40,000 nucleotides of DNA from Acidobacteriaceae bacterium (GCA_035651235.1 DASRGC010000061.1:27263-67262), one strand, 5' to 3'; numbered from the stretch's first letter, positions 11,324 to 27,509 are shown. Notes: generated by a model from the letters alone, not told the origin. Made by a program: numbers and translations.

Positions 11324-11328
11324 AGGTG

Positions 11329-11347
11329 AGCGGCGGGTTGACGGGTC
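11329..11347 (+). repeat. extra 19-bp unit: third copy of the 14-mer AGCGGCGGGTTGAC plus GGGT, the first 4 nt of the left TIR
   Basis: 11329..11347 agcggcgggttgacgggtc is a tandem copy of 11348..11366 agcggcgggttgacgggta (18/19 identical). Confidence 0.9.
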
Positions 11348-11361
11348 AGCGGCGGGTTGAC
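11348..11361 (+). repeat. left flanking direct repeat (putative target-site duplication) AGCGGCGGGTTGAC
   Basis: Exact 14/14 match to 26110..26123 in the same orientation. It abuts the outer end of the left TIR. Confidence 0.85.
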
Positions 11362-11397
11362 GGGTAGGGGGATAGGCAGCTGGAAAAGTGCACCCCC
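11362..11397 (+). repeat. left terminal inverted repeat (36 bp)
   Basis: GGGTAGGGGGATAGGCAGCTGGAAAAGTGCACCCCC is the reverse complement of 26074..26109 at 32/36 positions. The outer 14 nt and inner 16 nt are perfect; mismatches are confined to the central hexamer. Confidence 0.85.
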
Positions 11398-11407
11398 ATG
11401 CGACGGA

Positions 11408-11959
11408 TCATACTTCAGCGAGCAAACGGAAATTGGCTGCAGGCAATGTCGAGGTCCGCTGGCGGAGAATGCGATCCGGCAGGGGGCCCCGACACGCGGG
11501 GATGCTCCGAGATTCGGCAGCGGAGAAACGCGGGAATTGAGACGAACCACCTGCGGCGTCCATTATCAGAACGTCAAACCCTAACCGAATAGTCGCCTTC
11601 GCCATGGCCAGAATCCGTGTCCTTCTGATGCCATCGCCGAGGTCTGAAGTTTCACGTGCTCTATCGAGTTGCCGTAAAGTGTCGTCGACCCATGGTACGG
11701 AGCGAGCGGTGTCAAGCTCCCTTATCGACGCGACGAATGGAACTGCAGATTCGCGAACCCCGTTAATGGCGGACTTGAAAGCCAAGCGGGGCGCACGCAC
11801 ACGTGCGATTGCGACACCTACTTGGGCGGGGTTTCCAGCATTACTCCAATCCCGCTCAATCGAATAGACATGTATAGAATTGCTTGCAGCGCAAAAACTG
11901 ATTGTGAGTCGGTCCGTCTCGTTCCTCGTGTTGGAAACCGACCTGTTTTTTAACCTCAA
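11408..11959 (-). CDS. hypothetical protein (183 aa), coding status uncertain
   Basis: Longest ORF in the 590 bp between the left TIR and the mod gene. No recognisable motif and an Arg/Ala-rich composition. It may be a decayed gene or noncoding. Confidence 0.2.
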   Translation of the reverse strand: MRLKNRSVSNTRNETDRLTISFCAASNSIHVYSIERDWSNAGNPAQVGVAIARVRAPRLAFKSAINGVRESAVPFVASIRELDTARSVPWVDDTLRQLDRARETSDLGDGIRRTRILAMAKATIRLGFDVLIMDAAGGSSQFPRFSAAESRSIPACRGPLPDRILRQRTSTLPAANFRLLAEV

Positions 11960-11986
11960 GCAAGTATGAACTGAAAGACTCGAAGA

Positions 11987-13762
11987 ATGCCAACACTCGA
12001 TTGGATCGGCAAGAAGGCGGTCCTAAACCACCATCGCGAGGTCCCGTACCGACTCGTAAAGTGCGATCCGACGATGTCTGTGGGCAATCCAGGCAGCGGT
12101 AATCTGCTCGTCCAGGGCGACAATCTTGTTGCTCTCAAGGCACTGCTTCCCTATTACGCGGGTGAGGTCAAGTGCATCTATATCGATCCGCCATACAACA
12201 CGGGCAATGAGGGGTGGGTCTACAACGATGCTGTGAACAGTCCGGAGATTCGGGAGTGGCTCCACAAACAGGTGAAGGGCGAGGATGAGGACTTGACTCG
12301 CCACGACAAATGGCTCTGCATGATGTTTCCCCGACTCAGGTTGCTAAGCGAATTTCTCCAGGACGATGGCGTCGTTATTGTGAGCATCGACGATTTCGAG
12401 GCATACCGCCTGAGATCGATCATGGATGAAGTCTTCGGTCCGCGTAATTTTATTGCACAACTCGTTTGGGACAAGACACGAAAGAACGATGCCAAATTAT
12501 TTTCCGTCGGGCATGAGTATCTGCTTGTGTATGCAAAATCACTGCCACGTCTCCGCGAGTTGAAAACCGTTTGGCGCGAACAGAAGCCAGGGGCGACCGC
12601 CATCATCGCAAAATGGCAAGAGCTCAAGACCGAATACGGAGACGATTTCGCATCCATTCAGCTGAAACTTCGCGACTGGTACCGAAACCTGCCAGCTGGC
12701 AATCCATCAAAGAAGCTAAGCCGCTACAAATGGGTTGACAAATGGGGACCTTGGCGAGACCGAGACATCTCCTGGCCAGGAGGCGGAGGGCCTCGTTACG
12801 ATGTTCGGCATCCCGAAACGCACCTGCCATGTCTCGTTCCCGAAGCAGGATGGCGATTCGCAAAGCCGGAAGAAATGCAACGCCAAATCGACCTCGGACT
12901 TGTCCAGTTTCGCGATGATCACACTGAGCCCCCGTTCCGCAAGGCACATCTGCTTCCGGTACCGGAAGAGCTAGAGGCCGATCAGAGCGGTCCCAATGAT
13001 GATGAAGACGGCGATCAGGAGGAAGGTACGAACGGTGAACTAGCTGGACTTCAAGTGATGCCTAGCGTCATCTACAAACAGGCACAGGTCTCGGTCAAGC
13101 TGCTGCGAAAGTTATTTGATGGTCGCAAGGTTTTTCCCAATCCAAAAGACCACGAAATACTGATGCGTTTATTTCGCTACATAACAGGCCCCAACGATCT
13201 GATACTGGATGCATTTGCGGGGAGCGGATCTACTGCTCATGCTGTTCTTCAGTTGAACAAGGAAGAAAGCTCGAATCGCAGATTCATTCTTATAGAGATG
13301 AACGAGAAGATTGCTACGGAGATTACTGCCGAGCGAATCAAGCGAGTGATGAGGGGACACGCGGGTCTTCCGGCCCTTGGAGGCAGTTTTCGTTATTGCA
13401 CTATTACGGATGAGCTATTCAACTGCGACGGCCAAGTATCGGATAAGGTCAAGTTCTCTGCGCTTGCTCAACACGTCTACTTCACTGAGACCGGAGAGCC
13501 TCTGTCCACGTCGGTCGACAGAAAACGATCTCCGTTTATTGGAGTCTGCAACGGTACAGCATATTATCTTCTCTTCAATGGCATCCTCGGTGACAAGAGC
13601 GCAAACGGGGGAAACGTCCTGACGACAGCATTGTTACGTGAGCTGCCGGCACACGACGGACCGAAGGTCATTTTCGGAGAGGGCTGCAGGCTGGGAATCG
13701 ACACGCTGAAGCGCAAACGAATCACTTTCAAACAGATTCCCTACGAAATCAAGGTGAGTTGA
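11987..13762 (+). CDS. mod: Type III restriction-modification system methyltransferase (Mod), N6-adenine/N4-cytosine class
   Basis: Motif IV DPPYNTG near the N-terminus and motif I FAGSGSTAHA about 340 aa later, with a long variable (target recognition) region between them. LDWIGK N-terminus. Overlaps the res start. Confidence 0.9.
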   Translation: MPTLDWIGKKAVLNHHREVPYRLVKCDPTMSVGNPGSGNLLVQGDNLVALKALLPYYAGEVKCIYIDPPYNTGNEGWVYNDAVNSPEIREWLHKQVKGEDEDLTRHDKWLCMMFPRLRLLSEFLQDDGVVIVSIDDFEAYRLRSIMDEVFGPRNFIAQLVWDKTRKNDAKLFSVGHEYLLVYAKSLPRLRELKTVWREQKPGATAIIAKWQELKTEYGDDFASIQLKLRDWYRNLPAGNPSKKLSRYKWVDKWGPWRDRDISWPGGGGPRYDVRHPETHLPCLVPEAGWRFAKPEEMQRQIDLGLVQFRDDHTEPPFRKAHLLPVPEELEADQSGPNDDEDGDQEEGTNGELAGLQVMPSVIYKQAQVSVKLLRKLFDGRKVFPNPKDHEILMRLFRYITGPNDLILDAFAGSGSTAHAVLQLNKEESSNRRFILIEMNEKIATEITAERIKRVMRGHAGLPALGGSFRYCTITDELFNCDGQVSDKVKFSALAQHVYFTETGEPLSTSVDRKRSPFIGVCNGTAYYLLFNGILGDKSANGGNVLTTALLRELPAHDGPKVIFGEGCRLGIDTLKRKRITFKQIPYEIKVS

Positions 13763-16386
13763 TGGCCTTACAGCTTAAGAATTACCAGGAGCATTGCCTG
13801 AAAGTCTTGCGTGAGTTTCTGCGGGACGCCGCGAACATCGGCGCAAGGGCTGCATTTAACAAACGTGAGGAACTCCCCGTTAAGTATCGTGAGGTGGCGG
13901 GGTTGCCTGGCCTTCCATATGTCTGCTTGCGGGTCCCCACAGGCGGAGGAAAGACCATTCTTGCGGCTTCTAGCGTAGGAGTTGTAACCCAGGAATTCAT
14001 GCAGTCGGATCAATGTGTAGTCCTATGGCTTGCCCCCACAAGTGCCATCGTCCGTCAGACAATCAATGCGCTTCAAGATCGGACCCACCCGTATAGGCAG
14101 GCTCTGGCGACCGACTTCGGAGGCGATGTTGAGGTGCTGTCGATGGAGGAAGCATTGCGCGTAAGTAGGGCAACTTTGGACGGTGCAACAACCGTGATTG
14201 TGGGTACCCTGGCAGCGATCCGCGTTAGCGACACCGATGGTCGTCATGTCTACGAGACAAATGGAGCGTTGCAGCATCATTTCTCCGGGTTATCGGAGCT
14301 AGAACTCTCCACACTTGAGAAGACCGAAGAGGGAGTAATTGCGTACAGCCTCGCGAACGTCCTCAGGCTCAGGAGGCCGCTGGTCATCATGGACGAGGCG
14401 CATAACGCCCGCACCCCGCTGTCCTTCGAGACTCTGGAGCGGCTGAGTCCGTCGGGCATTCTGGAGTTTACTGCAACCCCGGCGAGCGAAAGCAATGTGA
14501 TTGTTTCGGTGTCCGCCGCGGAGTTGAAAGCCGAGCATATGGTAAAGCTGCCAATTCGGTTGGCCTCTCGTTCCCAATGGAAGGAAGCAGTTGGAGCTGC
14601 CGTCACTAAACAGCGGTTGCTTGAAAACCTCGCGAAAGAGGAGCAGAAGGCAACAGGGGAATACATCCGCCCCATCGTTCTCTTTCAGGCTCAAGCGCGC
14701 AGCGAGCACGAAAACACCGTGACCGTGGAGGTATTGCGCAAGTGTCTTTTGGAAGACTTCAGTATCCGGGAAGAAGAGATCGCTGAGGGAACAGGCCACA
14801 AGTGGGAGTTGCCTGAGAAGCTGTCCGCGGTCGGGCCGGTCAGATTCATCCTAACGGTTTCGAAATTGAGGGAAGGGTGGGACTGTCCGTTCGCATACAT
14901 TCTGTGCAGCGTTTCCAACCTGTCGAGTCGCACCGCGGTTGAGCAGATTCTCGGGCGTGTACTCCGATTGCCCGGGGCCACCACGAAGGTCAATGATGAC
15001 TTGAACCATGCATACGCCTTTGCGACTTCCGCTGACTTTGCACAGGCAGCAAATGGACTTACAGACGCCTTGGTGGAGAGCGGATTTGAGCGCTTTGAAG
15101 CCAAGCAGGTCGTCGAACCCGACCCAACATTGCCGTTTGGCGATATCAAAGGACCGCTTTTTGGGAAGAGCTTCACTGAGACGTTGGTCCAGGCTCCCAA
15201 GCTGCATGCGCTATCCAAAGAGATTCGCGAACGTTTTGCTGTCGTGGAGACTCCCGCGGATAAGCCGGATAGCCCCTCGGTTTTTGAGGTAACGTATTCC
15301 GGGCCACCTCTCACTAATGATGAAAAAGACGACATCAAGCGAGTTTGCGCGTCGGACGAGGACCGCACAGCCGTGGAACGGCTGGTATTGAAATCACGTG
15401 GCCACGCTGTGTACCCGGCGGCTCTGGGCGAGACTCTTTCCGTTCCGATGCTGGCCATAAGATCTGGTGGCCAATTGGACATCTTCGAAGAGCAGTTTAA
15501 GGAAGTGCCATGGGACCTCAGCCAGTGCGATCCCAGACTTACCGAGATTGACTTCAGCATCATTGAGTCCACCGGGAGAATGGCACAGGTTGATGTTGAC
15601 GAGTCGGGCAAGTTGCATGTGGATTTTGTCAGAGAACTCCACGAACAGCTCTCCTTTATCGACATTCGCGGACCGAAAACAGCCAGCGAACTCGCAGCTT
15701 GGTTGGACAGAAATGTTGACCGCAGTGACCGCCGCTATACAACTCAAGCGCAGATGGTGCTTTTCCTACGCCGTCTTGTGGACTACCTTGTCGCTGAAAG
15801 AGGTCTGCCACTGGAGGAGGTTGTTAGTGCGCGGTTCCGACTACGCGATGTCGCATCAGCAAAGATCCGTGATCACCTTTTGCGGGCGCATACGGTGGCC
15901 TTCCAGCAGATGCTGCCACCCAACGATGAAACAGATCTCGAAGTCAGTCCAGCACTCTGCTTCAGCTATCCGGCGGACCAATACCCGGCAAACCCTTACT
16001 ACACTGGCCGATTCAACTTTCAAAAGCACTTTTACGAGAAGCCAGGACAGTTGAACCCAGAAGAAGAAAAGGTTGCCGTATTGATTGACGGAATGTTGGA
16101 GGTCAAACACTGGGTACGGAACCTCGTGCGCCAGCCCGTTTGCTCATTCTGGCTTCCTACTCCCACTGACAAATTCTATCCGGACTTTGTCGCGGAGTTG
16201 AATGATGGCCGGTACATGGTGATTGAGTACAAGGGCAAGGACCGCAAGGACAACGTCGATTCGACAGAAAAGAAGACTATTGGCGAGGTTTGGGAGGCGA
16301 GAAGCAAAGGGCGCTGTGTTTTTCGCCTGGTGGGTATTGACGATTACCGAACTGTATTGCGCTCGGCAGTTGCCAGCTCGTCTTAG
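13762..16386 (+). CDS. res: Type III restriction enzyme Res subunit (SF2 helicase + C-terminal PD-(D/E)xK nuclease)
   Basis: Walker A VPTGGGKT, motif II IMDEAHN, motif III FTATP, motif VI-like QILGRVLR. C-terminal nuclease motif YPDFVAEL...MVIEYKGK. The ATG at 13762 overlaps the mod stop (TGATG). Confidence 0.9.
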   Translation: MALQLKNYQEHCLKVLREFLRDAANIGARAAFNKREELPVKYREVAGLPGLPYVCLRVPTGGGKTILAASSVGVVTQEFMQSDQCVVLWLAPTSAIVRQTINALQDRTHPYRQALATDFGGDVEVLSMEEALRVSRATLDGATTVIVGTLAAIRVSDTDGRHVYETNGALQHHFSGLSELELSTLEKTEEGVIAYSLANVLRLRRPLVIMDEAHNARTPLSFETLERLSPSGILEFTATPASESNVIVSVSAAELKAEHMVKLPIRLASRSQWKEAVGAAVTKQRLLENLAKEEQKATGEYIRPIVLFQAQARSEHENTVTVEVLRKCLLEDFSIREEEIAEGTGHKWELPEKLSAVGPVRFILTVSKLREGWDCPFAYILCSVSNLSSRTAVEQILGRVLRLPGATTKVNDDLNHAYAFATSADFAQAANGLTDALVESGFERFEAKQVVEPDPTLPFGDIKGPLFGKSFTETLVQAPKLHALSKEIRERFAVVETPADKPDSPSVFEVTYSGPPLTNDEKDDIKRVCASDEDRTAVERLVLKSRGHAVYPAALGETLSVPMLAIRSGGQLDIFEEQFKEVPWDLSQCDPRLTEIDFSIIESTGRMAQVDVDESGKLHVDFVRELHEQLSFIDIRGPKTASELAAWLDRNVDRSDRRYTTQAQMVLFLRRLVDYLVAERGLPLEEVVSARFRLRDVASAKIRDHLLRAHTVAFQQMLPPNDETDLEVSPALCFSYPADQYPANPYYTGRFNFQKHFYEKPGQLNPEEEKVAVLIDGMLEVKHWVRNLVRQPVCSFWLPTPTDKFYPDFVAELNDGRYMVIEYKGKDRKDNVDSTEKKTIGEVWEARSKGRCVFRLVGIDDYRTVLRSAVASSS

Positions 16387-16556
16387 GGGTTAAGCACCGA
16401 CCTAATTGACACTCAGCAACTCGGCTCGATCGGGCCTGGGAAGGATGGAGGCAAGACGCGTGGGTCGCGCATTGCAGCGCGCTTCAATAGTTGTCGTAGA
16501 CACAGGCATTCACCACGCGGAATCATTCCGCAACTCAGGATACTCAGGTCACGGCT

Positions 16557-18131
16557 CTAACGTCGGTTAATCCCGACGATCCTGGCGAGCACCATCCAAT
16601 GCCTTGGGTGCGGTAGCCGCCCCTTGCGGATCTCGTTCGCGTAGCCGGGCGATACTCCGAGGGCTTTGACGAGTGCCAGACGGGAAACCGACGGAAGAAT
16701 GGGCTGAATCCGTTTCGAGTAAAAATCCGGAATCAACCACGACGGCTGCGTTGAGGGGTCCCAATCCCACGCCGCCTGCGTGTTGATTGTCTGTGTCGCA
16801 GATCGTTTGGCTTGGGACTCTGGAGCGTGCGAAGTCTCGCGACCTATGCGCGCCACGTTTTGCATGTGCTGGACGCTGTCTGCTTGCCAACAGATGCCAC
16901 ACTGCTTCGATCGACCGGCGAGTTGCGCGCCGCATGACCGGCAGATGTTGATCGGCTGGACGGGAGCCTTAGCTCTAGGAAGCGGATCGGCCCCCTTCAC
17001 TTCTCGCCGATGGCGTTGCGTTAGGCGCGCCGGTAGTTGGAGCGAGCGAGGTTTGCTCGAACGGAAGAGTTCCTGAGCGAACCATTCGGCGACGGGGGCA
17101 ACCAGCCTTGCCCAGGTAGGAGAGGTCTGTGAAAGCCGCTCGGCGAACTGAGCCATCAATCGGCAATTGCCGTTGTGCTCCTCGAAAAAATGGTTCCGGG
17201 ACAGAGGTGCCGACTTGAGCCAATCCAAAAGAAACTTGTCGACCTCTGGCCGGATGGGCTCCATGAGATCGCAGGCCAAGCTGTCACGCGACGGTGTGTC
17301 GACGTGCAATACACCGATGCCAGGATCGAGACCGAGCGTCGCTGCGGCTAACCGCGCTTCCGCTTCGAGAATCGCATAGAGGTAATTCAACATTGCGTTA
17401 ACTGGATTGGCAGCGAGCCGAGGTGAACCAGTCAAAGGAGAAACTCGCGATCCAAATGTCTGCCAGTGAGCGGGGACGCGCGGCAGATCCTTACGCGGAA
17501 ACGCGATCGATAGCGAGCGCCATGCTGCCCAATAGACCTTGGCACCTTTCGACTCGATTAGCCTCAGAGCATTGACGGATCCGACCTCTGCCAATTCCGA
17601 GCGAATTTCTTTGATTGCAAGAGCCGCTGTCTCGTCCTTGAGGTCATCGTTGGCGACCCTTTGCTGACCGGCAAGCTTGCGGTCGACGATCTCTCGGCTG
17701 AGGCGAAATCCCACGCCATTGTCGAGTGCGAGGGATTGAGCGCGTCTGAGCTTGGCTTCAGAAGGACGCACAGGGCCTGTGTTGAGAAGAACCAGACCGT
17801 CGCGTTCAAGCATTGCGAACGAAGCTTTTTGATCAGCGAGCCATCGCAACGCAGACAATGAAACAACACCATCAGTACCGATCACGACGAGGCGTTTGAG
17901 ATCGTGGCCCACGCGTGGCAACCGGCAGCTTCTTCTATCTGAGCCGATGCCATCCTCAACAAGCAAATGACCGCGATCTACACGGACGGATATTCCGTAT
18001 CCCGACAAGACCACGACTCCAAGCCTGGGCTTGATTGGGAGCGCGCCTGAGGCCTCTTTAGAAGCATCATCCTGTCTCTTAGAGCTGCGCACCCTCCTTC
18101 TCGTTGGCGTAGCTAAGCTGCTTATTTTCAT
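16557..18131 (-). CDS. cas1: Cas1-family integrase (casposase-like) with C-terminal zinc ribbon and HTH
   Basis: Cas1 N-terminal beta-domain pattern (VVLSGYGISVRVDRGHLLVEDG ... LKRLVVIGTDGVVSLSALRWLADQKASFAML). Catalytic Glu in LIESKGAKVYW. Core motif NPVNAMLNYLYAILEAE...GLDPGIGVLHVDTPSRDSLACDLMEPIRPEVD (His276, Asp288/Glu291). Extension with CRSC...CGIC (aa 397-414) and terminal HTH (LALVKALGVSPGYANEIRKG). Confidence 0.85.
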   Translation of the reverse strand: MKISSLATPTRRRVRSSKRQDDASKEASGALPIKPRLGVVVLSGYGISVRVDRGHLLVEDGIGSDRRSCRLPRVGHDLKRLVVIGTDGVVSLSALRWLADQKASFAMLERDGLVLLNTGPVRPSEAKLRRAQSLALDNGVGFRLSREIVDRKLAGQQRVANDDLKDETAALAIKEIRSELAEVGSVNALRLIESKGAKVYWAAWRSLSIAFPRKDLPRVPAHWQTFGSRVSPLTGSPRLAANPVNAMLNYLYAILEAEARLAAATLGLDPGIGVLHVDTPSRDSLACDLMEPIRPEVDKFLLDWLKSAPLSRNHFFEEHNGNCRLMAQFAERLSQTSPTWARLVAPVAEWFAQELFRSSKPRSLQLPARLTQRHRREVKGADPLPRAKAPVQPINICRSCGAQLAGRSKQCGICWQADSVQHMQNVARIGRETSHAPESQAKRSATQTINTQAAWDWDPSTQPSWLIPDFYSKRIQPILPSVSRLALVKALGVSPGYANEIRKGRLPHPRHWMVLARIVGINRR

Positions 18132-18162
18132 GCATTTATGATACTCTCCGGGTGCTTGAATG

Positions 18163-18735
18163 TCAGCCGTCGGACTTGTATTTTGCGCAGATTCGTTGCA
18201 CGGTACGAAGGCTCAAACCGGTCCTGTCTGCAATGCGTTGCTGGGCAAAACCCGTCTTGACTCCGTCTCTCTTCAGTCTTTCGACCTCATGACATATTGA
18301 TCGACATTCTTCCTCACTTGGCATCGTCGGGGGTCTGCCTCCGCCTCGATGATAAGGAAGAATCCCAACCATTCGTTCCGCATTCGAACGCCAATCCGGC
18401 AGCAACTCCTTCAATACGAAACTCAAGAAATGCTCAATCTTCGGTACGTCTTCGTCCGGAAATGCCGCGAAGATTGCGGTTGCCTTCTCTCTCGTATCGA
18501 TCATCCCCAAGATTTCATAAAAGAACTCTGGTCGAACTGAGTCGGGTTCATCTCTCTGATACATTTCGCGCGCGAGCTTGTGAAGCCATGGCGCTGGAGA
18601 TCTGTTCTTGTCCTGACATTCGCGGCGGAGTCTTGCGATGGCTTCTTCGTAGCTGTCAGCCCCACTGATCGCCAGGAGGTGTTCGATCACCTTTTCGTAG
18701 GTTGGCTGAAGTTTTCTTTGAGCCTCTTCCGTCAT
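18163..18735 (-). CDS. hypothetical DNA-binding protein with C-terminal resolvase/Hin-type HTH
   Basis: 190 aa. The C-terminus GGGRPPTMPSEEE...GFAQQRIADRTGLSLRTVQRI resembles HTH_7-type domains. Sits directly upstream of, and co-oriented with, the Cas1 gene. Confidence 0.6.
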   Translation of the reverse strand: MTEEAQRKLQPTYEKVIEHLLAISGADSYEEAIARLRRECQDKNRSPAPWLHKLAREMYQRDEPDSVRPEFFYEILGMIDTREKATAIFAAFPDEDVPKIEHFLSFVLKELLPDWRSNAERMVGILPYHRGGGRPPTMPSEEECRSICHEVERLKRDGVKTGFAQQRIADRTGLSLRTVQRICAKYKSDG

Positions 18736-18761
18736 TTCGCCAAAACTACCCCCAACCAGTT

Positions 18762-19430
18762 ATGGCAAAAGAATATGCCAAAAGAGGAGACGGGCTTGTT
18801 GATGCAGCTGCCGTTAGGCAGCATGCAGCCATGAAACGTCGATCCTCAAAGAAAGTCTCACCCAAACAGTCTGCCAGGCCATCTCGGGCGAAAGCCAAGC
18901 CCGGAACGACTCCGAAACGGAGATCCAGGACGAGCCGTGCCCCACGAACAGCGGAAGCATTAGCCGCGATGCCTGAGAATGCCCAGGATCAATGGGCGAG
19001 AGCTACCCGCGTGATCCAGAAGATGCGACGTGAGGGCATCTCGGTCACACGCGCCGCTAAGGAGTATGGCATCAGCCGCAAAAAGGTCGTCGATCTTGCC
19101 GGATCAGCCCTGCGGAAACAAACGAATGGCCGTTACGTAGCAAAGCGATTCGACAAATTGCTTCGCGTATTGGTGATCCCGTCTCGTCAAGGACCGATGG
19201 AAATTGCAGTACGCGACTCGCGAACGGCATCGAAGATCGCCGCCTATAGTGAGGCTGTCCGAAAGTTTGTACAGACTGGCGATTCCTCGGCCCTTCGCCA
19301 ATTCAAGAAACTCAAGTTGAAGGATGCGTCTGGAAATCCGATCAAGTTCTTAACAGATACGAAAGAGCTCATGCGCTTGGGACACGCTGGAGTACTTTCC
19401 TTCGAATCTCTGTACGCGAGGGCAGCCTGA
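18762..19430 (+). CDS. hypothetical basic protein with internal HTH
   Basis: The ATG at 18762 is divergent from 18735. Lys/Arg/Pro-rich N-terminus, then GISVTRAAKEYGISRKKV (HTH-like). The stop overlaps the next start (TGATG). Confidence 0.55.
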   Translation: MAKEYAKRGDGLVDAAAVRQHAAMKRRSSKKVSPKQSARPSRAKAKPGTTPKRRSRTSRAPRTAEALAAMPENAQDQWARATRVIQKMRREGISVTRAAKEYGISRKKVVDLAGSALRKQTNGRYVAKRFDKLLRVLVIPSRQGPMEIAVRDSRTASKIAAYSEAVRKFVQTGDSSALRQFKKLKLKDASGNPIKFLTDTKELMRLGHAGVLSFESLYARAA

Positions 19431-19918
19431 TGCCTACCCGCGACCCCATCCGATCGGCAACACGGCGAAGCAAAATACGCAGACGTTTTCCGCCAGGAGC
19501 GGCTTGCCACACGTGCGGGGAGACATCCCCGTTGGCACTGATCCCTTATTCCGAGCCTCTGATTTGCGCCGAATGTGAGCGTGTTCGAAACAACCAATCG
19601 ACCCGCGATTGGCACCACCCCGCCGGTAGCGCAAATCACGACCTAACGGTTCCGATCCCAGTCAACGCTCATCGCTCTCGGCTTAGCGAATCGCAGTATG
19701 ACTGGCCATCACGGACTCTTAGAAATCGCCACCGAAGTCGTCTGCTCGCTGCTGCAGCGTGCATTCGGGGGTTGATTGACATGATGAAGTACCTGCTCGA
19801 CGAGCTCGGTCGCTGGATCCCGGAATATTTGGAGTCACTGGATACAGCACTGATGGATGAATTCGGCGAAGAGTGGCCCAAAAAAGAAGCAGACAAGCTC
19901 GAAGGAGAAGACAAATGA
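19430..19918 (+). CDS. putative zinc-ribbon / HNH-like nuclease
   Basis: CHTC...CAEC cysteine pairs followed by DWHHPAGSANHDLTVPIPVNAH (HH...N...N-x-H spacing). Translationally coupled to PolB (ATGA overlap at 19915..19918). Confidence 0.45.
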   Translation: MPTRDPIRSATRRSKIRRRFPPGAACHTCGETSPLALIPYSEPLICAECERVRNNQSTRDWHHPAGSANHDLTVPIPVNAHRSRLSESQYDWPSRTLRNRHRSRLLAAAACIRGLIDMMKYLLDELGRWIPEYLESLDTALMDEFGEEWPKKEADKLEGEDK

Positions 19919-20214
19919 CTGACAAGACAGAACAGCAGCCATATCCAATACCCGTCGCGATTCGTGTCTACCCTGAACCGCCGAGAGACAGGAAGCCACG
20001 TGAGCACGTCAAAGCCATTCGACCCGACACTATGATCGTGTTCGATACCGAGACCACAACTGATCCCACGCAGCGTTTACTCTTCGGCTGCTACCGCTTC
20101 ATCGAGAACGGAATATCTGTTGAAGAAGGGCTTTTCCACGCGCCCGATCTCTCAACCTATCAAGTGAAGACACTCCGCGAGTACGCGGCTCGAAATCATT
20201 CGAGCCACCAATAG
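19915..20214 (+). CDS. polB: family B DNA polymerase, fragment 1 of 3 (N-terminus with Exo I)
   Basis: Exo I motif IVFDTETT (Asp 20044..20046, Glu 20050..20052). The frame ends at TAG 20212..20214 while the next frame is already open from 20168. Confidence 0.75.
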   Translation: MTDKTEQQPYPIPVAIRVYPEPPRDRKPREHVKAIRPDTMIVFDTETTTDPTQRLLFGCYRFIENGISVEEGLFHAPDLSTYQVKTLREYAARNHSSHQ

Positions 20215-20293
20215 AGAACCTCTCAGACTCATCACTCTCGGTGATTTCTTAGACAAACTGTTCAAAGCAGCGTACAAGGGTCGGTCCTTAGTT

Positions 20294-21034
20294 GTGGGTT
20301 TCAATCTCCCATTCGATCTCTCGCGGCTCGCGTTCAACGTAACGCCCGCACGTCGCGAGTTCGGAGGAGGATTCTCCTTCGGCTTGTGGACCTACACCGA
20401 TGAGAACCGCGTGGTTCGACTCGACCCCAATCGCCCGCGGATCACGATTAAGCACATCGATAGCAAGCGTGCCCTGATCAGTTTTACTGGCCGGAAGTCG
20501 CCGGATGAAGTCGATCTCATCCCGGAGGGATCAGTGGAGGGAACGCCACAACGTGGATACAAGTTTCGCGGCCACTTTCTCGATCTAAAGACACTCGCAT
20601 TCGCGCTCACTGACCGCAGCCATACTTTAAGATCCGCGTGCGAAGCATTTGGCGTGAAGCGTGGAAAGATCGAAGCGGAGAAGCATGGGGAGATCACTGA
20701 TGAATACATCGATTACAACCGTCGTGACGTGGAGGCGACAGCGGAGCTTGCGTTAGCTCTGCTAGCCGAATTCGACCGTCACCCGATCCTGTTGGCTGAA
20801 ACGAAAGCATTCTCGGCGGCTTCGATAGGCAAAGCCTATCTCCGATCGATGGTGATCACGCCGATTCTCGAAAGACAATCGGATCTGTTGCCCTACGTGG
20901 GATACGCTCAAACGGCCTACTTCGGAGGTCGCACCAGCGCGCATATTCGCAAGACTCCGGTTCCTGTCGTCTATACGGATTTTCTATCGATGTACCCCAC
21001 CGTGAACTCCCTCACGGGTCTCTGGGGTTATTGA
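20294..21034 (+). CDS. polB: family B DNA polymerase, fragment 2 of 3 (Exo II, Exo III, Pol motif A)
   Basis: LVVGFNLPFDLSRL (Exo II), YIDYNRRDVEAT (Exo III, YxxxD) and VYTDFLSMYPT (motif A DxxSxYP, Asp at 20978..20980). This reading frame is open from 20168 and has no convincing start of its own. Confidence 0.75.
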   Translation: MGFNLPFDLSRLAFNVTPARREFGGGFSFGLWTYTDENRVVRLDPNRPRITIKHIDSKRALISFTGRKSPDEVDLIPEGSVEGTPQRGYKFRGHFLDLKTLAFALTDRSHTLRSACEAFGVKRGKIEAEKHGEITDEYIDYNRRDVEATAELALALLAEFDRHPILLAETKAFSAASIGKAYLRSMVITPILERQSDLLPYVGYAQTAYFGGRTSAHIRKTPVPVVYTDFLSMYPTVNSLTGLWGY

Positions 21035-22953
21035 TTACCAGAGAGATCAAGGTCATCGATCACTGCCAGGCTGAGATCATTCGATTCCTGAAAGGCATCA
21101 CGGTCGATCAACTGTTTGATCCAAGGACGTGGAGGAAGCTGAGAGCCTTCGTCAAAATCGTCCCGAATGGAGACATCCTGCCTGTTCGTGGGTCTTTCAA
21201 TTCCGCAAGCAACGACTGGCAAGTTTCGATCAATCACGTGTATGCGGGTACGGATGAGGATCGCCTTTGGTATTCGCTGCCTGACGTCGTCGTATCGGTC
21301 CTCCTGACCGGGCGCATTCCCGATATCGTCGATGCCTTCCGAATCGAACCGTCGAAGCAGGTTCTCCCAAATCTGCGACCAACGAAGTTTCGCGGTGAAA
21401 TCCGCATCGATCCCAGAAGGCAAGACTTCTTCACACTAGTCATTGAAGAGCGAAAACGCCTCCGTTTCCGAAAGGATCTAACGAAGGATGGACGGGAATG
21501 GCTGGACAAGGGACTTAAGGTATTGGCCAACTCAACGAGCTATGGAATCTATGGCCAGATGGATCGGAAGGAATCGAACGAGCGAAAGACCGTCAAATGC
21601 CATGGCCTCGACCCCAATCCCTACGAATGCAGGGTGCAGAATCCCGATGTGCCTGGAGAGTTCTGCTGTCCTCTATTGGCATCTCTGACCACTGGTGCAG
21701 CACGCCTTATGCTTGGACTGCTGGAGAAGTGTGTCACGGACATGGGTGGCACCTACGCGATGGAAGACACCGACTCCATGGCAATCGTCGCGACTCAGAA
21801 GGGCGGATTGGTGCCGTGCGAGAGCGGCCCCTTCAAGCTGCGCGACAGCACAAGTGCGATCAAAGCGCTTAGTTGGGCGAGAGTGCGCCAAATCGTTGAC
21901 CGATTCGAGAAACTCAACCCCTACGACCGCGCTGCTGTCCCTGGATCGATCCTGAAGGTTGAGAGCTGCAACTTCGATCGAAAGACGAAACGACAGCGAG
22001 AGATATGGTGTTTTGCGATCTCGGCAAAGCGATATGCGCTCTTCGTCAAAGCCAGATCGGGTCGACCCGCCCTCTTATGCGAGGACGTGAATTGTGAGGA
22101 GGACCATTGGTCGGAACATGGGCTCGGCCATCTACTCAACCCGAGCGACATCGATAAGGATGATCGGGACTGGATCGCTCACGTTTGGCAGTGGATCATC
22201 GAAGGATGTTCAGCGAACCGCAGGCCGGTCCCGTTTGCCAAGCTCCCGGCCATCGGAAGACTCACGGTCTCTAGCCCGTCACTCTCGAATCCGCTGGCCA
22301 GCCTGAACGTAGCGAAGGCCTACGCTCAGTGGATCAAGCCGTTCAACTTTCTCGTGACGTGTCATGTCAACCCATTCGGTCACCCTAAAGACTGTGACCC
22401 CAAGCGTTTTCACCTGATCGCGCAATATCAGACCGACTCGAAGATGTGGGTGAGGTCACAATGGATCGAACAGTATTCGGGCAAGAGCTATAAAGTGACC
22501 ACCGACCTAGAGGGTCGCGATCGGCGAACTGCTTGGGTAAAGACATACGCAGATGTGATCGAAGAGTACGCTCATCACCCGGAAGCAAAATGTGCTGACA
22601 AAGACGGAAATCCGTCAGGTCAACCGACAATCGGGCTGCTCTTTCGGCGGCATGTGCGCATTGGAGAGATCGTCGCGATAGGCAAGGAGTCGAACAGCCT
22701 CGAAGAGGTCGACGCGGGGCTACTGCATTCCGCCGATCAGGTTTATACAGTGTATCCAGACAGGACAAGGGATTTCTGGGCGCGGGAGATCGCGTCGAAG
22801 TTGAAGAAAATCCCTCTGTCTGTTTTGATCAGGGAGACCGGATTGTCACGGCGAATGCTGGTTAACGTCCGTGGCGGCCAGGTACGCCCGCATCGGCGTA
22901 ATCAAACCATACTGATCGAGCTTCTTCATCGCCTAGCAGCGCAACAGTGCTAG
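21031..22953 (+). CDS. polB: family B DNA polymerase, fragment 3 of 3 (Pol motifs B and C, thumb)
   Basis: KVLANSTSYGIYG (motif B KxxxNSxYG, 21517..21555) and AMEDTDSM (motif C DTD, 21766..21774). There is no canonical start codon at 21031; it continues fragment 2 after a -1 frame change. Confidence 0.75.
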   Translation: MITREIKVIDHCQAEIIRFLKGITVDQLFDPRTWRKLRAFVKIVPNGDILPVRGSFNSASNDWQVSINHVYAGTDEDRLWYSLPDVVVSVLLTGRIPDIVDAFRIEPSKQVLPNLRPTKFRGEIRIDPRRQDFFTLVIEERKRLRFRKDLTKDGREWLDKGLKVLANSTSYGIYGQMDRKESNERKTVKCHGLDPNPYECRVQNPDVPGEFCCPLLASLTTGAARLMLGLLEKCVTDMGGTYAMEDTDSMAIVATQKGGLVPCESGPFKLRDSTSAIKALSWARVRQIVDRFEKLNPYDRAAVPGSILKVESCNFDRKTKRQREIWCFAISAKRYALFVKARSGRPALLCEDVNCEEDHWSEHGLGHLLNPSDIDKDDRDWIAHVWQWIIEGCSANRRPVPFAKLPAIGRLTVSSPSLSNPLASLNVAKAYAQWIKPFNFLVTCHVNPFGHPKDCDPKRFHLIAQYQTDSKMWVRSQWIEQYSGKSYKVTTDLEGRDRRTAWVKTYADVIEEYAHHPEAKCADKDGNPSGQPTIGLLFRRHVRIGEIVAIGKESNSLEEVDAGLLHSADQVYTVYPDRTRDFWAREIASKLKKIPLSVLIRETGLSRRMLVNVRGGQVRPHRRNQTILIELLHRLAAQQC

Positions 22954-23064
22954 CTTTCTAATTCTGAGGCGGAACCCGGCAACCGGCAAACGTAGACCGA
23001 AAGGCTGGTGAAGCAATACGATCGTCTGCGGTTATGATGGTTACGATTCCACTGAGCAATTCTG

Positions 23065-24174
23065 ATGGCCTATTACATTGACCTCTTCTCGCCCGAAACG
23101 TATCGAGCCTTTAGCAATTCAGACCGGACGGTGTCAGGATTTCGACCCCGGCATGAAAGCCTTGCGAAACGTATCCTTCCGGGCGACACGTTTGTTTGCT
23201 ACGTGACAAAGCTTTCACGCTGGATTGGATTGCTGAGAGTCGATGCAGGGCCTTACGAGGACAGTACTCCGATCTTCGCTACAGAAAACGACCCATTCAG
23301 CATTCGCTTCAAGGTGAGCAGTGAGGTGTGGCTCGATCTCGAGAAGGCGGTACCGATCCATGATGAGGAGATATGGAAGGGGCTTTCTTTCACCCGTGAA
23401 CTGTTGCACAACTCAATTGCGTGGACGGGAAAGGTGCGCGGTAGCCTTGTGCGGCTTGAGGATTCGGATGGAGAATTCATTGCTCAAGTGCTCAGACGGC
23501 AGCTATTGACCCCCAAACTTTATCCAATCGATGAGCAGGACAGGAAGAAACTCACGACTCATACCATTGTCCGCTCCGACAAGGTTGTAAGTGTTTCGGT
23601 GCCCGACGATCCTCCACCGGTCGAAGAAGCAGCTTCCACGCCGGATACGGAAGCGCCGGAGCGTGAATCCATACGTATGCAAGCCCTGATCGCACAAATT
23701 GGTCACCAGATGGGAATGTCCATTTGGATTCCACGATCCGATCGCGAGCGGGTCTTGCGAGAGTGGAAGGACTCCAACGCGCGCGTCCTCGATCGTCTGC
23801 CTCTCAACTACGACGACACAACTCTTAAGACCATCGAACAGATCGATGTTCTTTGGCTTCGAAACCGTTCCATCATCCGCGCGTTCGAGGTGGAGCACAC
23901 GACATCAATTTATTCCGGGATCTTACGTATGGCTGATCTACTCGCGCTTCAGCCAAACATGGATATCAATGTGCACATTGTTGCTCCAGTAGCGAAACGT
24001 GAGAAGGTGTTCCAAGAGATCAGGCGACCTGTTTTTTCTCTGCTGGACCGCGGACCTCTCGCCGAAAGCTGTACCTATCTGCCCTACGACGCCTTGCGCG
24101 ACATTGCGCAACTGAAGCATCTCGAACATCTGTCCGACAAGGTTCTCGATGAGTATTCCGAAGAGGCAGAGTGA
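23065..24174 (+). CDS. EVE/PUA-like domain fused to a PD-(D/E)xK-type nuclease-like domain (candidate modification-dependent endonuclease)
   Basis: The N-terminal 150 aa follow the EVE-like layout (MAYYIDLFSPE..., GDTFVCYVTK...WIGLLRV, ...RGSLVRL). The C-terminal part has IDVLWL...IIRAFEVEHTTSI...VHIVAP, a D...E-x-E/K nuclease-core-like pattern. Confidence 0.55.
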   Translation: MAYYIDLFSPETYRAFSNSDRTVSGFRPRHESLAKRILPGDTFVCYVTKLSRWIGLLRVDAGPYEDSTPIFATENDPFSIRFKVSSEVWLDLEKAVPIHDEEIWKGLSFTRELLHNSIAWTGKVRGSLVRLEDSDGEFIAQVLRRQLLTPKLYPIDEQDRKKLTTHTIVRSDKVVSVSVPDDPPPVEEAASTPDTEAPERESIRMQALIAQIGHQMGMSIWIPRSDRERVLREWKDSNARVLDRLPLNYDDTTLKTIEQIDVLWLRNRSIIRAFEVEHTTSIYSGILRMADLLALQPNMDINVHIVAPVAKREKVFQEIRRPVFSLLDRGPLAESCTYLPYDALRDIAQLKHLEHLSDKVLDEYSEEAE

Positions 24175-24289
24175 TTCTTGACTGAACGAATTTGCGAATC
24201 ACCTGTCTAAAGCAAAGTGATTCGCGACAGCGGGTCCTTATATGAATACGATTGACGGAAAAACTTATTTCGGGCTGACTTAACAATTT

Positions 24290-25498
24290 ATGGCCGACTC
24301 GCCAGTCATGCTGCCGGAGTGGAAGAAGGGGCATTCGCGTCTCAATCCCACAATCGCAGCGCTCCTAAGTCGTGGTGTTGATACTGATGCCGCCGCTGAA
24401 CTTCGGCGCAAAGGGTGGACCCTCGGCAAGTTACAGCAACAGACTCCTGAGACACTTCAGTCCCTTGGAGTTCGTGGAGAAGCGATCGAGCGTATCCTCG
24501 GTTCAGATCGCCCCCCAATTCCTTTTGCGACTCTAGCTCAGGTTCTCATCGCAAGTCGCATGACATGTTGCGTCTGCAATAATCCAAGCCGAGGCGTGGT
24601 TGTGCATCACTTGCTCGACTGGTCAAAATCACATAGCCACGACGAGCAGAATCTTGCTGTGTTGTGTCTTATTGATCACGACAGAGCCCATTCACAAATA
24701 GCCCATACGCAAAACCTCACTGTCCCATTAATCAAACGGTTCAAAGAGCGTTGGCAAAAACGTGTTGAAGAACTCAGCACCAAGGCAATCCTGACCGCCG
24801 CAGCCAAGGACTTTAGCTGCTGGTGGTATTTCAATAGGACTCGGCTATTCGGGATGGCCCAAGATAGGTCTGTGTTGTTGCAAAATCTTCAATATTTCAG
24901 AAGTGCGCATTCAGGCGGTTGGATTAATCAGGAAGGTTATCCCCTGCGCAAGAATCACCGCGCTAACTATTCCTTGGAGGGCGGCGATGGCGGGTCGATG
25001 TATGCATATCTCAAAGCTGTCTTAGATCACACGCTCCTGTCCACAAGCGTTCTCAACATCAGCGATGACCTCGATCGCAACTTCTTGAAAGCCGTCTTGC
25101 GACCCGGTCATTTAATCTTTTTGCAGGGCTCATACAGGTTTGTCGAAAAGACGAAGCGGGATAGGGGGCCTGGACAGACCGTTGAGATGTATCGTCAAAC
25201 AAATGGAGTGCGCGTTTCGTCGACGATCGACCGATGGGAAGCCACCTCTAATTCTGCATGGTCCAGTTACCTCAAAGGGACATACGAAGCTTCGGCGATA
25301 ATGCGCGTCGTATCTCTCGACTCCTTGAACGGAGAATTCGTGGTCCGGGGCTCGTCAATTGCAATCGGAGCACCTCTCGAGGGCATGAAAACTCGCGAAT
25401 ACTCAAATGCCCCCTACCGACGCGGCTATTACGTCCGTACGGATCAATTCGAAGAGGACGACTATATGGGCGAGTGCTTTGAGAATCCAGATCGTTGA
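24290..25498 (+). CDS. HNH endonuclease domain protein with N-terminal HhH-like segment and large uncharacterised C-terminal domain
   Basis: CCVCNNPSRGVVVHHLLDWSKSHSHDEQNLAVLCLIDHDRAH (Cys pair, HH, N, H-x-x-H). About 250 aa downstream of the HNH core has no recognisable motif. Confidence 0.7.
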   Translation: MADSPVMLPEWKKGHSRLNPTIAALLSRGVDTDAAAELRRKGWTLGKLQQQTPETLQSLGVRGEAIERILGSDRPPIPFATLAQVLIASRMTCCVCNNPSRGVVVHHLLDWSKSHSHDEQNLAVLCLIDHDRAHSQIAHTQNLTVPLIKRFKERWQKRVEELSTKAILTAAAKDFSCWWYFNRTRLFGMAQDRSVLLQNLQYFRSAHSGGWINQEGYPLRKNHRANYSLEGGDGGSMYAYLKAVLDHTLLSTSVLNISDDLDRNFLKAVLRPGHLIFLQGSYRFVEKTKRDRGPGQTVEMYRQTNGVRVSSTIDRWEATSNSAWSSYLKGTYEASAIMRVVSLDSLNGEFVVRGSSIAIGAPLEGMKTREYSNAPYRRGYYVRTDQFEEDDYMGECFENPDR

Positions 25499-25500
25499 GT

Positions 25501-26022
25501 ATGGCAAAAACCCTCACACCTGATAAATTCGCAAGCGATCCTAAGCCGTGGCGCATCTGCGCGCAGTTCAATCTGGACGCCGCACGGGTTCTATTCACCC
25601 ATGAGGCTGCGATAATGCTTTGCTTTCCGGCAGCCACGCTCGCACACCTGGGTCTCGAAGCAATGCTAAAAACCGCCCTTATCCGCGAGGGCTTCACGAT
25701 CTTCGACCCAATGAAACTCAAGCAGCTCTCTGCGTCCACGCTCACGAGAGACAAATGTGCCTGGGGGCACAATCTGGTGGCGCTCGCGAGGCTCTTGACT
25801 TCGAAGCGTCCGGATTTCGACCTGCAAAAACCTCTTCGCGGGGTTTTTCCACCCCACGATTATCCAGTGACGATTGAAGATGGCCTGGAGATATTCGATC
25901 CATACTTCTCGGAGCTACGATATCCGCAGCAGCTCAACAATCTGCAAGGAATCGGACCCGACGATATACGAATGCTTGATGCAATCGCCGAAGAACTTCT
26001 CCCATTTGCAGGGCCCTTATAG
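25501..26022 (+). CDS. HEPN-like domain protein
   Basis: Helical protein with AATLAHLGLEAMLKTALI, WGHNLVALARLL and YFSELRYP, resembling the HEPN helix pattern. The ATG at 25501 is 2 nt after the HNH gene stop; a TTG at 25495 would overlap it. The gene ends 51 bp before the right TIR. Confidence 0.45.
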   Translation: MAKTLTPDKFASDPKPWRICAQFNLDAARVLFTHEAAIMLCFPAATLAHLGLEAMLKTALIREGFTIFDPMKLKQLSASTLTRDKCAWGHNLVALARLLTSKRPDFDLQKPLRGVFPPHDYPVTIEDGLEIFDPYFSELRYPQQLNNLQGIGPDDIRMLDAIAEELLPFAGPL

Positions 26023-26073
26023 GCTTGGTCTCGGTGTTTCGCGGCCAGATCGACGCTGACTGGCTCTGAGTGA

Positions 26074-26109
26074 GGGGGTGCACTTTTCCGCCGCCCTATC
26101 CCCCTACCC
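26074..26109 (-). repeat. right terminal inverted repeat (36 bp)
   Basis: GGGGGTGCACTTTTCCGCCGCCCTATCCCCCTACCC is the reverse complement of 11362..11397 at 32/36 positions. Confidence 0.85.
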
Positions 26110-26123
26110 AGCGGCGGGTTGAC
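26110..26123 (+). repeat. right flanking direct repeat (putative target-site duplication) AGCGGCGGGTTGAC
   Basis: Exact copy of 11348..11361. It abuts the outer end of the right TIR. Confidence 0.85.
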
Positions 26124-26207
26124 CCATTCGTCTGCGGCAAATACACTCAAACAGGCGGCTGATTGTGGCTCCCGCCCGAGCCTGCAGCTGCCATATTCAA
26201 TCTGAAT

Positions 26208-26281
26208 TGCCCTCTCGTTCAATGGTAGGACAGTCGGCTCTGAACCGATCAATCGGGGTTCGAATCCCTGGGGGGCAACCA
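26208..26281 (+). tRNA. tRNA-Gln (anticodon CTG), CCA encoded
   Basis: Hand-folded cloverleaf: acceptor TGCCCTC/GGGGGCA, D arm GTTC-AATGGTA-GGAC, anticodon arm GTCGG-CTCTGAA-CCGAT, T arm CGGGG-TTCGAAT-CCCTG, discriminator A + CCA. A 5' U is typical of bacterial tRNA-Gln. Confidence 0.9.
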
Positions 26282-27499: not shown

Positions 27500-27509
27500 G
27501 AAGTTTTGG

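Follow-up and report, generated by a model that had tools for sequence, protein, structure and literature searches.

Casposons are proposed ancestors of the CRISPR adaptation machinery, and the few dozen elements described to date are almost all archaeal. The published members of casposon family 3 are described only as "intergenic", and we know of no bacterial family 3 casposon that has been studied functionally. One of them, NitAL212-C1 of Nitrosomonas sp. AL212, measures 14.4 kb and possesses a 36-nt terminal inverted repeat (TIR) starting GGGGTAT and a 14-bp target-site duplication (TSD), and another, AceAut-C1 of Candidatus "Acetothermum autotrophicum", encodes a casposase composed of Cas1, a zinc-binding domain and a helix-turn-helix (HTH) (PMC4046053). 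The present analysis concerns a stretch of 40,000 nucleotides from an Acidobacteriaceae bacterium (DASRGC010000061.1, 27263-67262; hereafter the window), in which positions 11362-26109 enclose a 14.7-kb element that is built nearly as NitAL212-C1 and shares the casposase layout of AceAut-C1. The best explanation of the whole locus, to which a probability of roughly 0.88 is given, is a family 3 casposon that lies at the -35 box of a tRNA-Gln promoter, has moved recently, carries an inactivated family B DNA polymerase (PolB) and is flanked on its left by a probable excision footprint. The original prediction, made from the window sequence alone, had proposed a bacterial casposon, and this identification is borne out by the clade to which its Cas1 belongs, by a polB gene beside cas1 in 74 of 80 related loci, by TIRs and 14-bp TSDs in 30 relatives and by empty sites. 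None of the findings that it had named as fatal to itself (a dispersed repeat, relatives carrying the same genes with other boundaries or none, or a Cas1 nested among CRISPR-associated ones) turned up.

Element boundaries, casposase and relatives

The longest inverted repeat within 10.5-27 kb is formed by two 36-nt arms that are complementary at 32 of 36 positions and delimit the element exactly where they had been predicted (Table 1). The pair is perfect over the inner 16 nt, as predicted, and over the outer 15 nt, one more than the 14 nt first given. All four mismatches fall in one 6-nt block (11377-11381 against 26090-26094), which reads CAGCTG on the left and GCGGCG on the right and separates the conserved terminal 15 nt from the inner GGAAAAGTGCACCCCC motif, which suggests a bipartite TIR. 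The right TIR is identical at 36 of 36 positions to the left TIR of a sibling casposon, L097, from which the window's own left TIR differs, and at 34 of 36 to one TIR of a further relative, L044. The mismatch block reads GCGGCG at both ends of L097, and L044 has yet another variant of it. The exact 14-mer AGCGGCGGGTTGAC abuts the outer side of both TIRs, in agreement with the predicted direct duplication. By our own estimate, an inverted repeat of 32/36 would arise by chance in 16 kb with a probability of about 1e-6, and the adjoining exact 14-mer would contribute another factor of about 1e-8. The TIR sequence occurs in only two copies within the window, and neither repeat is dispersed. The element had been placed about 85 nt upstream of tRNA-Gln and 5 nt after the stop codon of a permease gene; the former agrees with a duplication that ends 84 nt before the tRNA gene, and the latter is true of an extra copy of the 14-mer only, since the copy that abuts the left TIR begins 24 nt downstream of that codon. 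A better landmark for the insertion than the permease stop is the -35 box of the tRNA-Gln promoter, at which the element sits.

The Cas1-family protein of the element matches Pfam Cas_Cas1 at 3.7e-40, and its residues E193, H276, D288 and E291 fall on the catalytic positions of the M. mazei casposase (structure 6opm) and are invariant in 28 relatives, which agrees with the intact catalytic residues previously noted. Among NCBIfam models, the generic Cas1 model alone passes its cutoff and every CRISPR-subtype Cas1 model stays below. Behind the Cas1 domain, C397, C400, C411 and C414 are invariant and are followed by a conserved tail, and weak matches to zinc-ribbon (15/28) and HTH_3 (7/28) models recur in this region across the family. 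In BLASTP comparisons, with the alignment in Additional file 2 of Krupovic 2014 (PMC4046053) as the Cas1 reference, the highest score was obtained with AceAut-C1 (46% identity, 212 bits), followed by other family 3 members (125-199 bits), family 2 (83-118 bits), family 1 (60-64 bits) and CRISPR Cas1 (at most 52 bits); identity to the Methanosarcina and Aciduliprofundum boonei casposases of families 2 and 4 is 26-30%. A neighbour-joining distance tree, not a maximum-likelihood one, of 29 sequences with 100 bootstraps placed the window Cas1 and six acidobacterial relatives as sister to AceAut-C1 (bootstrap 79), this group within family 3 (86; StrAlb-C1, HenMar-C1, NitAL212-C1 and AceAut-C1) and family 3 within the casposase clade (100). 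The phylogeny thereby supports the assignment of the protein, at the level of sequence, as a family 3 casposase apart from CRISPR Cas1. In accordance with the original prediction, no CRISPR-like array was found in the window and no cas2 among the window open reading frames (ORFs) scanned. Furthermore, no tyrosine or serine recombinase or DDE transposase was found inside the element with Pfam, NCBIfam and PADLOC, the scan covering ORFs of at least 162 aa between 11.4 and 26.0 kb plus one 87-aa ORF searched with Pfam only.

A scan of GTDB species representatives with the Cas1 alignment returned 344 relatives, the best 80 of which were examined. Nearly all of these 80 are from Acidobacteriota, including Tunturiibacter, Granulicella and many Terriglobia metagenome-assembled genomes (MAGs); Cas1 relatives also occur in Edaphobacter, and the host group is bacterial. 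The window PolB fragment is identical to a deposited protein of an Acidobacteriaceae bacterium MAG. One locus (L045, CAVXKJ010000003.1) is labelled "uncultured Candidatus Micrarchaeota archaeon", the others being Acidobacteriota, and this label is probably a binning or labelling error. Thirty further elements of 7.6-17.7 kb were delimited by script, with TIRs of 33-144 nt and an exact TSD in each case, and these together with the window element make up a set of 31 elements whose 62 ends were uniformly anchored. All 62 ends start with GGG, and the TSD measures 14 bp in 31 of 31. The TIRs follow a family pattern of GGG, a variable stretch and an inner motif resembling GAAAAGTGCAC; few matches to the window TIR 15-mer were obtained in the 80 related loci because the TIR sequences diverge.

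Promoter target and tandem arrays

The TSD ends with TTGAC in 28 of the 31 elements, the following base is usually C, and a TAnnnT hexamer lies 17-18 nt beyond the TSD in the host flank. By the criteria of a promoter-scanning tool, 27 of the 31 insertion sites qualify as sigma-70-type promoters with that TTGAC as their anchor, compared with 68 of 1302 background TTGAC words (5.2%) in the same loci. The corresponding binomial probability of 6e-31 is too favourable, and it counts against the case that the 31 sites are not independent, ten of them being the valS promoter; the set nevertheless holds at least a dozen distinct promoters. The downstream gene is tRNA-Gln in the window, in T. psychrotolerans (L012) and in L097, valS in ten loci, thrS in two and rpmH in two, and nuoB and other genes elsewhere. 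In 11 loci searched with Rfam, the sequence that follows the targeted promoter contained no known RNA, and most targets are promoters of protein genes. The targeted promoter always points away from the element, and the promoter-proximal TSD copy restores the -35 box. At the tRNA-Gln site itself, both hexamers and the transcribed leader are invariant across seven orthologous sites and two deduced empty sites (window and L097) while the 17-nt spacer varies freely, which argues for a working promoter. The leader of about 55 nt before the mature tRNA-Gln (AGGCGGCTGATTGTGGCTCCCGCCCGAGCCTGCAGCTGCC..., 26154-26207) is highly conserved in L085-L092, more so than the promoter spacer. A different transcribed stretch, GTGTTCTCCGC...GGAGGGATTCCTGAGTC, is conserved after the promoter in L016, L026, L028, L036 and L039, where it lies 100-500 nt before the first long ORF; it matches nothing in Rfam and may represent a leader or small RNA not yet described.

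In 12 of the 30 delimited loci, the promoter-distal TSD is immediately adjoined on its outer side by a TIR from another casposon; no such TIR was found on the promoter side. A neighbouring TIR was called at 20/32 or more identities to another element's TIR, and promoter-side controls did not exceed 14/32. Cas1 fragments are also present in two of the 12 distal flanks. These neighbours, judged from their sequences, indicate polar tandem arrays, of which the delimited, Cas1-bearing element is always the promoter-proximal member (12/12 arrays). Because the proximal copy is used consistently although both TSD copies are identical, a recognition determinant would be expected beyond the cut, toward the promoter, much as the A. 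boonei casposase requires a "leader" (PMC6614799). Several genomes contain two or more different casposons of the clade, among them L026 and L047 on one contig and L019 and L034 in one MAG, and a second PolB copy lies within 10 kb in L075 (fragmented) and L069 (partial match).

From this anatomy and published casposase biochemistry, a possible course of integration can be proposed. The casposase would join the two TIR ends, GGG...CCC, to the target at points 14 bp from each other, and gap repair would then yield the 14-bp duplication. One cut would fall directly after the TTGAC of the tRNA-Gln -35 box, which the promoter-proximal TSD copy would rebuild. The same target rule holds across the acidobacterial clade, at the promoters of tRNA-Gln, valS, thrS, rpmH and others, and repeated use of the promoter-proximal copy could build the polar tandem arrays. 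Mobility of the window copy would rest on its intact casposase, possibly with PolB supplied in trans.

Alternatively, the casposase may read only the short word (T)TTGAC(C), and the association with full promoters would reflect the survivorship of harmless insertions. This is possible, but we lean against it. The information content of the insertion sites peaks at TTGACC (1.2-1.8 bits per position) and is weaker in the -10 region, and TTGAC insertions within genes would be counter-selected. On the other hand, a -10 box at 16-18 nt accompanies 5.2% of background TTGAC words and 27 of 31 insertion sites, and the proximal one of two identical 14-mers adjoins the delimited element in 12 of 12 arrays and in the window, which favours a determinant lying toward the promoter.

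Alleles and left flank of the tRNA-Gln site

An exact-protein look-up identified two Logan contigs from run SRR5581483. The first (L002, 14,747 nt) corresponds to window positions 11392-26138, that is, the element and 29 nt of its right flank. The second (L004, 2,926 nt) matches 8451-11361 at 100% identity over 2911 nt and then continues with CCATTCGTCTGCGGC, which is window 26124-26138, so that its junction reads ...GGGTCAGCGGCGGGTTGAC|CCATTCG. The k-mers that join GGGTC-14-mer to CCATTCG are impossible from the filled allele; an empty allele from the same strain-level population must therefore be present in the run. Both contigs end at the same 30-mer node, as expected of a k=31 graph with converging paths. 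The left end of L002 lies 30 nt inside the TIR (11392), not at the junction, with L004 taking the empty path; a coverage gap with tip clipping, or a variant at 11391, may account for this end. With a filled and an empty allele both present in one sample, this copy appears to have moved recently. The empty site had been predicted to hold a single 14-mer; an empty allele exists, but it keeps both left copies in the order ...GAGGTG, 14-mer, GGGTC, 14-mer, CCATTCG.... An exact search of JGI metagenome contigs with the empty-site 28-mer gave no match.

A protein-guided scan of JGI metagenomes with the permease yielded ten usable orthologous loci (permease 63-90% identical), none of which, including L085-L093, has a casposon at the permease/tRNA-Gln site. 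tRNA-Gln follows the permease in nine of the ten, and the promoter TTGACC-N17-TACACT is found about 85 nt upstream of the tRNA in seven of these nine; in L091 the tRNA is about 3 kb away. Of seven distinct orthologous loci, five have the target in a single copy, one (L090) has a degenerate near-repeat and one is without the site; the extra 14-mer is missing from the single-copy sites L085-L089 and L092/L093. The sibling casposon L097, reached via the Cas1 homologue P0003 (79% identity), occupies the same permease/tRNA-Gln site. It measures 15,993 bp and possesses perfect TIRs identical to the window right TIR, the TSD GCGGCGAGGTTGAC and an intact PolB of 1017 aa; its cargo differs, consisting of GmrSD and a type I/IIG restriction system, and its deduced empty site has a single target copy. 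A phage-type integrase is encoded beyond tRNA-Gln in the L097 locus.

In the window, the left flank reads permease stop codon, AGGTG, 14-mer, GGGTC, 14-mer and TIR, which together with the right TSD gives three copies of the 14-mer. On either side, the limits of the repeated segment are exactly those of the TSD, and the spacer GGGTC equals the first four nucleotides of the TIR (GGGT) followed by its last (C). We interpret the extra 14-mer as a duplication left by an earlier occupant. Because five of the seven orthologous loci carry a single target copy, 14-mer-GGGTC-14-mer looks like an excision footprint, and, on the sequence of this flank, it is probably, though far from certainly, that of an earlier occupant that was excised imprecisely. 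The order of events would then be an insertion, an imprecise excision that left TSD-footprint-TSD, and a re-insertion at the promoter-proximal copy, with the empty allele L004 representing the footprint allele. Imprecise excision was predicted by the original casposon model (Krupovic 2014, as summarised in PMC10359463). In vivo, MetMaz-C1 was excised precisely and without a footprint, leaving a single clean target site (PMC10359463).

The same arrangement could have arisen by slipped-strand tandem duplication of the intergenic region, unrelated to casposon excision, which we consider less likely. TRF reports a 19-nt unit in 2.2 copies at 95% identity, and the GGT of the spacer recurs upstream of the first copy, so that a slipped duplication of 18/19 nt with one or two changes, with GGT[G/C]AGCGGCGGGTTGAC as the unit and a 1-nt spacer, would also describe the flank; the precise excision of the M. 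mazei casposon points the same way. Against the footprint it also counts that it rests on a single locus, no second clean example having been found in the 80 loci. Against slippage, the repeated part equals the 14-bp TSD exactly on both sides and occupies the place expected of an older array member, such as was seen in 12 of 30 loci; the spacer can be read as a TIR prefix with a TIR suffix, which we estimate for about 6 of 1024 random 5-mers, and most of the distinct orthologous sites have one copy only. The empty site of L090 (JGI Ga0335074_10000070) contains three TTGAC words, ...GGTTGAC|TTCGCGGGCTTGAC|GGTTCGC|TTCGCTGGGTTGAC|CC, in which the final two 14-mers are 12/14 identical and 7 nt apart, with a spacer starting GG; this could be an older, decayed footprint or a coincidence.

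A broader synthesis can be put forward only tentatively, and it is doubtful in its entirety: the casposases of this clade may read the whole promoter through a leader-like promoter-side determinant, possibly one that includes the -10 box or the RNA polymerase-sigma factor complex bound there, and always insert at the proximal TSD copy, so that arrays with identical 14-bp repeats would grow as an analogue of leader-directed CRISPR arrays, and the window would preserve the first natural casposon excision footprint, in support of the imprecise-excision model, for which the M. mazei experiments gave no confirmation.

Polymerase, other genes and known systems

The original prediction had read PolB, with motifs Exo I-III and A, B and C, from a single ORF at 19915-22953. 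The motifs are present, and the ORF is split by two frameshifts into pieces of 99, 246 and 640 aa: the first in frame 1 (Exo I, DTET), the second in frame 2 (Exo II, NLPFD; Exo III, YNRRD; motif A, DFLSMYPT) and the third again in frame 1 (motif B, KVLANSTSYG; motif C, EDTDS). Compared with the intact PolB of L097, the window is short of 2 nt near 20202 and of 1 nt at 21032. The homologues are single proteins of about 1010-1040 aa in which the canonical motifs are all invariant (42 homologues), and the counterparts of the three window pieces form one continuous frame in nearly all 74 loci carrying PolB. A profile search gave a borderline match to DNA_pol_B_2 only (27.3 bits against a cutoff of 25.8), and a PDB sequence search with the intact PolB gave no match, so the family B assignment is carried by fold comparison. 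The PolB homologue of Edaphobacter bradus was modelled (pLDDT 66, pTM 0.64), and Foldseek returned 170 PDB matches at E<=1e-3 (best 1.3e-11), with alignments spanning about 800 columns; every one of the 50 matches listed is a family B polymerase (Pol alpha, African swine fever virus, poxvirus and archaeal PolB enzymes and E. coli Pol II). In this predicted structure, the homologue is folded as a family B polymerase.

The middle segment, although out of frame, retains 65-76% identity to relatives and contains no stops, which dates the damage as recent, and polB in this copy is, as judged from its reading frames, a recently broken pseudogene. A family B polymerase is a feature of the clade that is probably non-functional here. 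Because PolB is frameshifted twice, "self-synthesizing" does not apply to this copy as it stands; it has probably lost the ability to replicate itself, and PolB, should it be needed at all, would have to be supplied in trans. Programmed frameshifting was rejected as the cause of the split: neither CAA TAG A nor TAT TGA T appears to be a slippery site, and relatives encode one ORF.

The element could instead be a dead relic that arrived once by casposition, lost its PolB by decay and became immobile, the polymorphism then reflecting coexisting lineages that never had the element or lost it otherwise. The two PolB frameshifts, the four differences between the left and right TIRs when those of L097 are perfect, and frameshifted PolBs in a few relatives (L060, L063/64, L075 and L083) would fit this account. 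It is made less likely by a full-length Cas1 with intact catalytic residues, by the recency of the polymerase damage and by an empty-allele flank that is identical to the filled one over its whole length, which indicates a very recent difference; moreover, casposase integration in vitro reportedly requires no PolB.

Several further points weigh against a recently moved, promoter-targeted casposon as the explanation of the whole locus. The empty allele could be ancestral and not a product of excision. The PolB split is identical in the ENA contig containing the window and in the Logan contig, and both assemblies may derive from the same reads; if real, the double frameshift is itself unfavourable. 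For the core genes, HNH and HTH were assigned from motifs or from matches below threshold. The 14-bp TSD of the published family 3 element NitAL212-C1 lacks TTGAC, so promoter targeting may be specific to the present clade.

The remaining genes form a conserved core and variable arms (Table 1). In the core, cas1 is divergent from the 242-aa gene, the 162-aa gene and polB, an order that recurs in relatives. The 242-aa protein has a weak HTH match (HTH_psq, below threshold). The 162-aa family has invariant residues C29, C46, C49, H62, H63, N69, N79 and H81, and this CxxC/HH/N/N..H pattern suggests an HNH nuclease; in Pfam, no significant HNH match was obtained for it. The cargo genes are missing from the 30 delimited relatives and have at most one or two weak matches among the 80 loci (Mod, weak matches in 2/80); both arms of the element carry variable defence cargo. 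Between the left TIR and the Mod gene (11398-11986, about 590 nt), there is no ORF with homologues in any related locus.

Table 1. Positions in the window of the element, its genes and its target site
Feature	Position	Strand	Details
Extra promoter-distal copy of the 14-mer	11329-11342	+	AGCGGCGGGTTGAC
5-nt spacer GGGTC	11343-11347	+	Putative excision footprint; also in empty allele L004
Left (promoter-distal) TSD	11348-11361	+	14 bp, AGCGGCGGGTTGAC
Left TIR	11362-11397	+	GGGTAGGGGGATAGGCAGCTGGAAAAGTGCACCCCC
Cargo: type III restriction-modification methyltransferase (Mod)	11987-13762	+	Pfam N6_N4_Mtase 1.3e-31; PADLOC MTase_III 1.2e-164
Cargo: type III restriction enzyme (Res)	13759-16386	+	Pfam ResIII 1.2e-12; PADLOC REase_III 5.1e-131
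Casposase (Cas1), intact	16557-18131	-	524 aa; Cas1 domain, then C-terminal CxxC...CxxC zinc ribbon and HTH-like tail
190-aa protein	18163-18735	-	Weak C-terminal HTH match below Pfam cutoff; matches in 5/80 loci; poorly conserved
Core gene, 242 aa	18702-19430	+	Between cas1 and polB in relatives; 51/80 loci, same synteny
Core gene, 162 aa	19430-19918	+	Zinc-finger and HNH-like (motif-based)
Broken family B DNA polymerase gene	19915-22953	+	Pieces 19915-20214, 20294-21034, 21031-22953; frameshifts at about 20202 and 21032
Cargo: type II restriction-endonuclease-like C-terminus	23065-24174	+	NmeDI_C, PF27126; PADLOC REase_II 2.4e-16
Cargo: 402-aa protein with HNH endonuclease domain	24290-25498	+	Pfam HNH 1.9e-4, 21.9 bits, cutoff 21.4
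Cargo: 175-aa ORF	25495-26022	+	No family match
Right TIR	26074-26109	+	GGGGGTGCACTTTTCCGCCGCCCTATCCCCCTACCC
Right (promoter-proximal) TSD	26110-26123	+	14 bp; final 5 nt TTGAC = start of -35 box
Target promoter TTGACC-N17-TACACT	26119-26147	+	Promoter-scanning tool; reads away from element
tRNA-Gln (CTG)	26208-26281	+	Gene served by targeted promoter

The interior had been described as more AT-rich than the flanks, which holds against the left flank (GC 0.61-0.63, compared with 0.51-0.57 inside) and fails against the right, where GC stays at 0.53-0.57 until about 37 kb. Because the low GC continues rightward, composition marks the left boundary only. The genes at 26300-37500 encode MarR, SDR, two methyltransferases, a DegT aminotransferase, GNAT, GT2 and a PMT_2-family glycosyltransferase, and no integrase was seen among them; they constitute a cluster for glycan synthesis or modification that was possibly acquired horizontally. 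A second mobile island downstream of tRNA-Gln, considered on account of the low GC to 37 kb, was rejected since the genes are this glycan cluster.

In the literature searched, no paper links casposons to Acidobacteria in substance, and the host phylum, the clade size, the promoter -35 target rule, polar arrays in bacteria, an in-sample filled/empty polymorphism and a candidate footprint are absent from it. The element type is already known, as a family 3 casposon, and its target biology is unreported. The casposon clade represented by this locus is large and is found in a phylum that ranks among the most abundant in soil; the locus also shows casposons as carriers of interchangeable restriction and defence cargo, while the natural polymorphism within a single sample offers a testable handle. 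The candidate footprint bears on the disagreement between predicted imprecise and observed precise excision, and the target rule, a promoter-proximal cut after the TTGAC of housekeeping -35 boxes, parallels leader-directed spacer integration.

That the locus might be a stray CRISPR adaptation Cas1, or an integrase-driven, tRNA-associated island (pipolin) with incidental repeats, is suggested by public annotations of the Cas1 relatives as "CRISPR-associated endonuclease Cas1", by the adjoining tRNA gene and by the marginal DNA_pol_B_2 match, and is refuted by a Cas1 within the casposase clade in a window where no array and, among the ORFs scanned, no cas2 was found, by the lack of tyrosine and serine recombinases among the element ORFs scanned, by boundaries made of TIR and TSD upstream of a tRNA promoter instead of direct repeats in a tRNA 3' end, and by the same architecture at valS, thrS and rpmH promoters.

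Among known systems, family 3 casposons are the closest, sharing a polB gene, a small gene for a putative HNH-like protein and putative HTH genes as a core, restriction-modification cargo and intergenic insertion. The window element differs from them in its host phylum, Acidobacteriota, in belonging to a clade of 344 relatives as opposed to a handful of published elements, in its frameshifted PolB and in clade sites that are mostly the -35 box TTGAC. The elements of families 2 and 4 (MetMaz-C1 and Aciduliprofundum boonei; PMC4779613, PMC10359463, PMC6614799) resemble it in their TSDs of 14-15 bp, a strong site preference with a "leader"-like determinant outside the duplicated segment, empty and filled sites among strains, and tandem arrays separated by a shared TSD, with a decayed PolB in one array member. 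In contrast, their hosts are archaeal, they insert at tRNA 3' ends, aEF-2 or specific intergenic sites and not at promoters, and excision of MetMaz-C1 left a single clean site where the window locus has a possible footprint. Pipolins (PMC11551731) likewise combine a family B polymerase with variable defence cargo, often beside tRNA genes, but employ tyrosine recombinases and direct att repeats, whereas the window element has TIRs, a TSD and a casposase. CRISPR adaptation by Cas1-Cas2 at the leader-repeat junction shares a Cas1-fold integrase, a target duplication of fixed length and polar addition beside a flanking "leader" that contains a promoter. The window differs in that no array or spacers and, among the ORFs scanned, no cas2 were found; the inserted DNA is the 14.7-kb element itself, and the targeted promoter reads away from the insertions and not into them.

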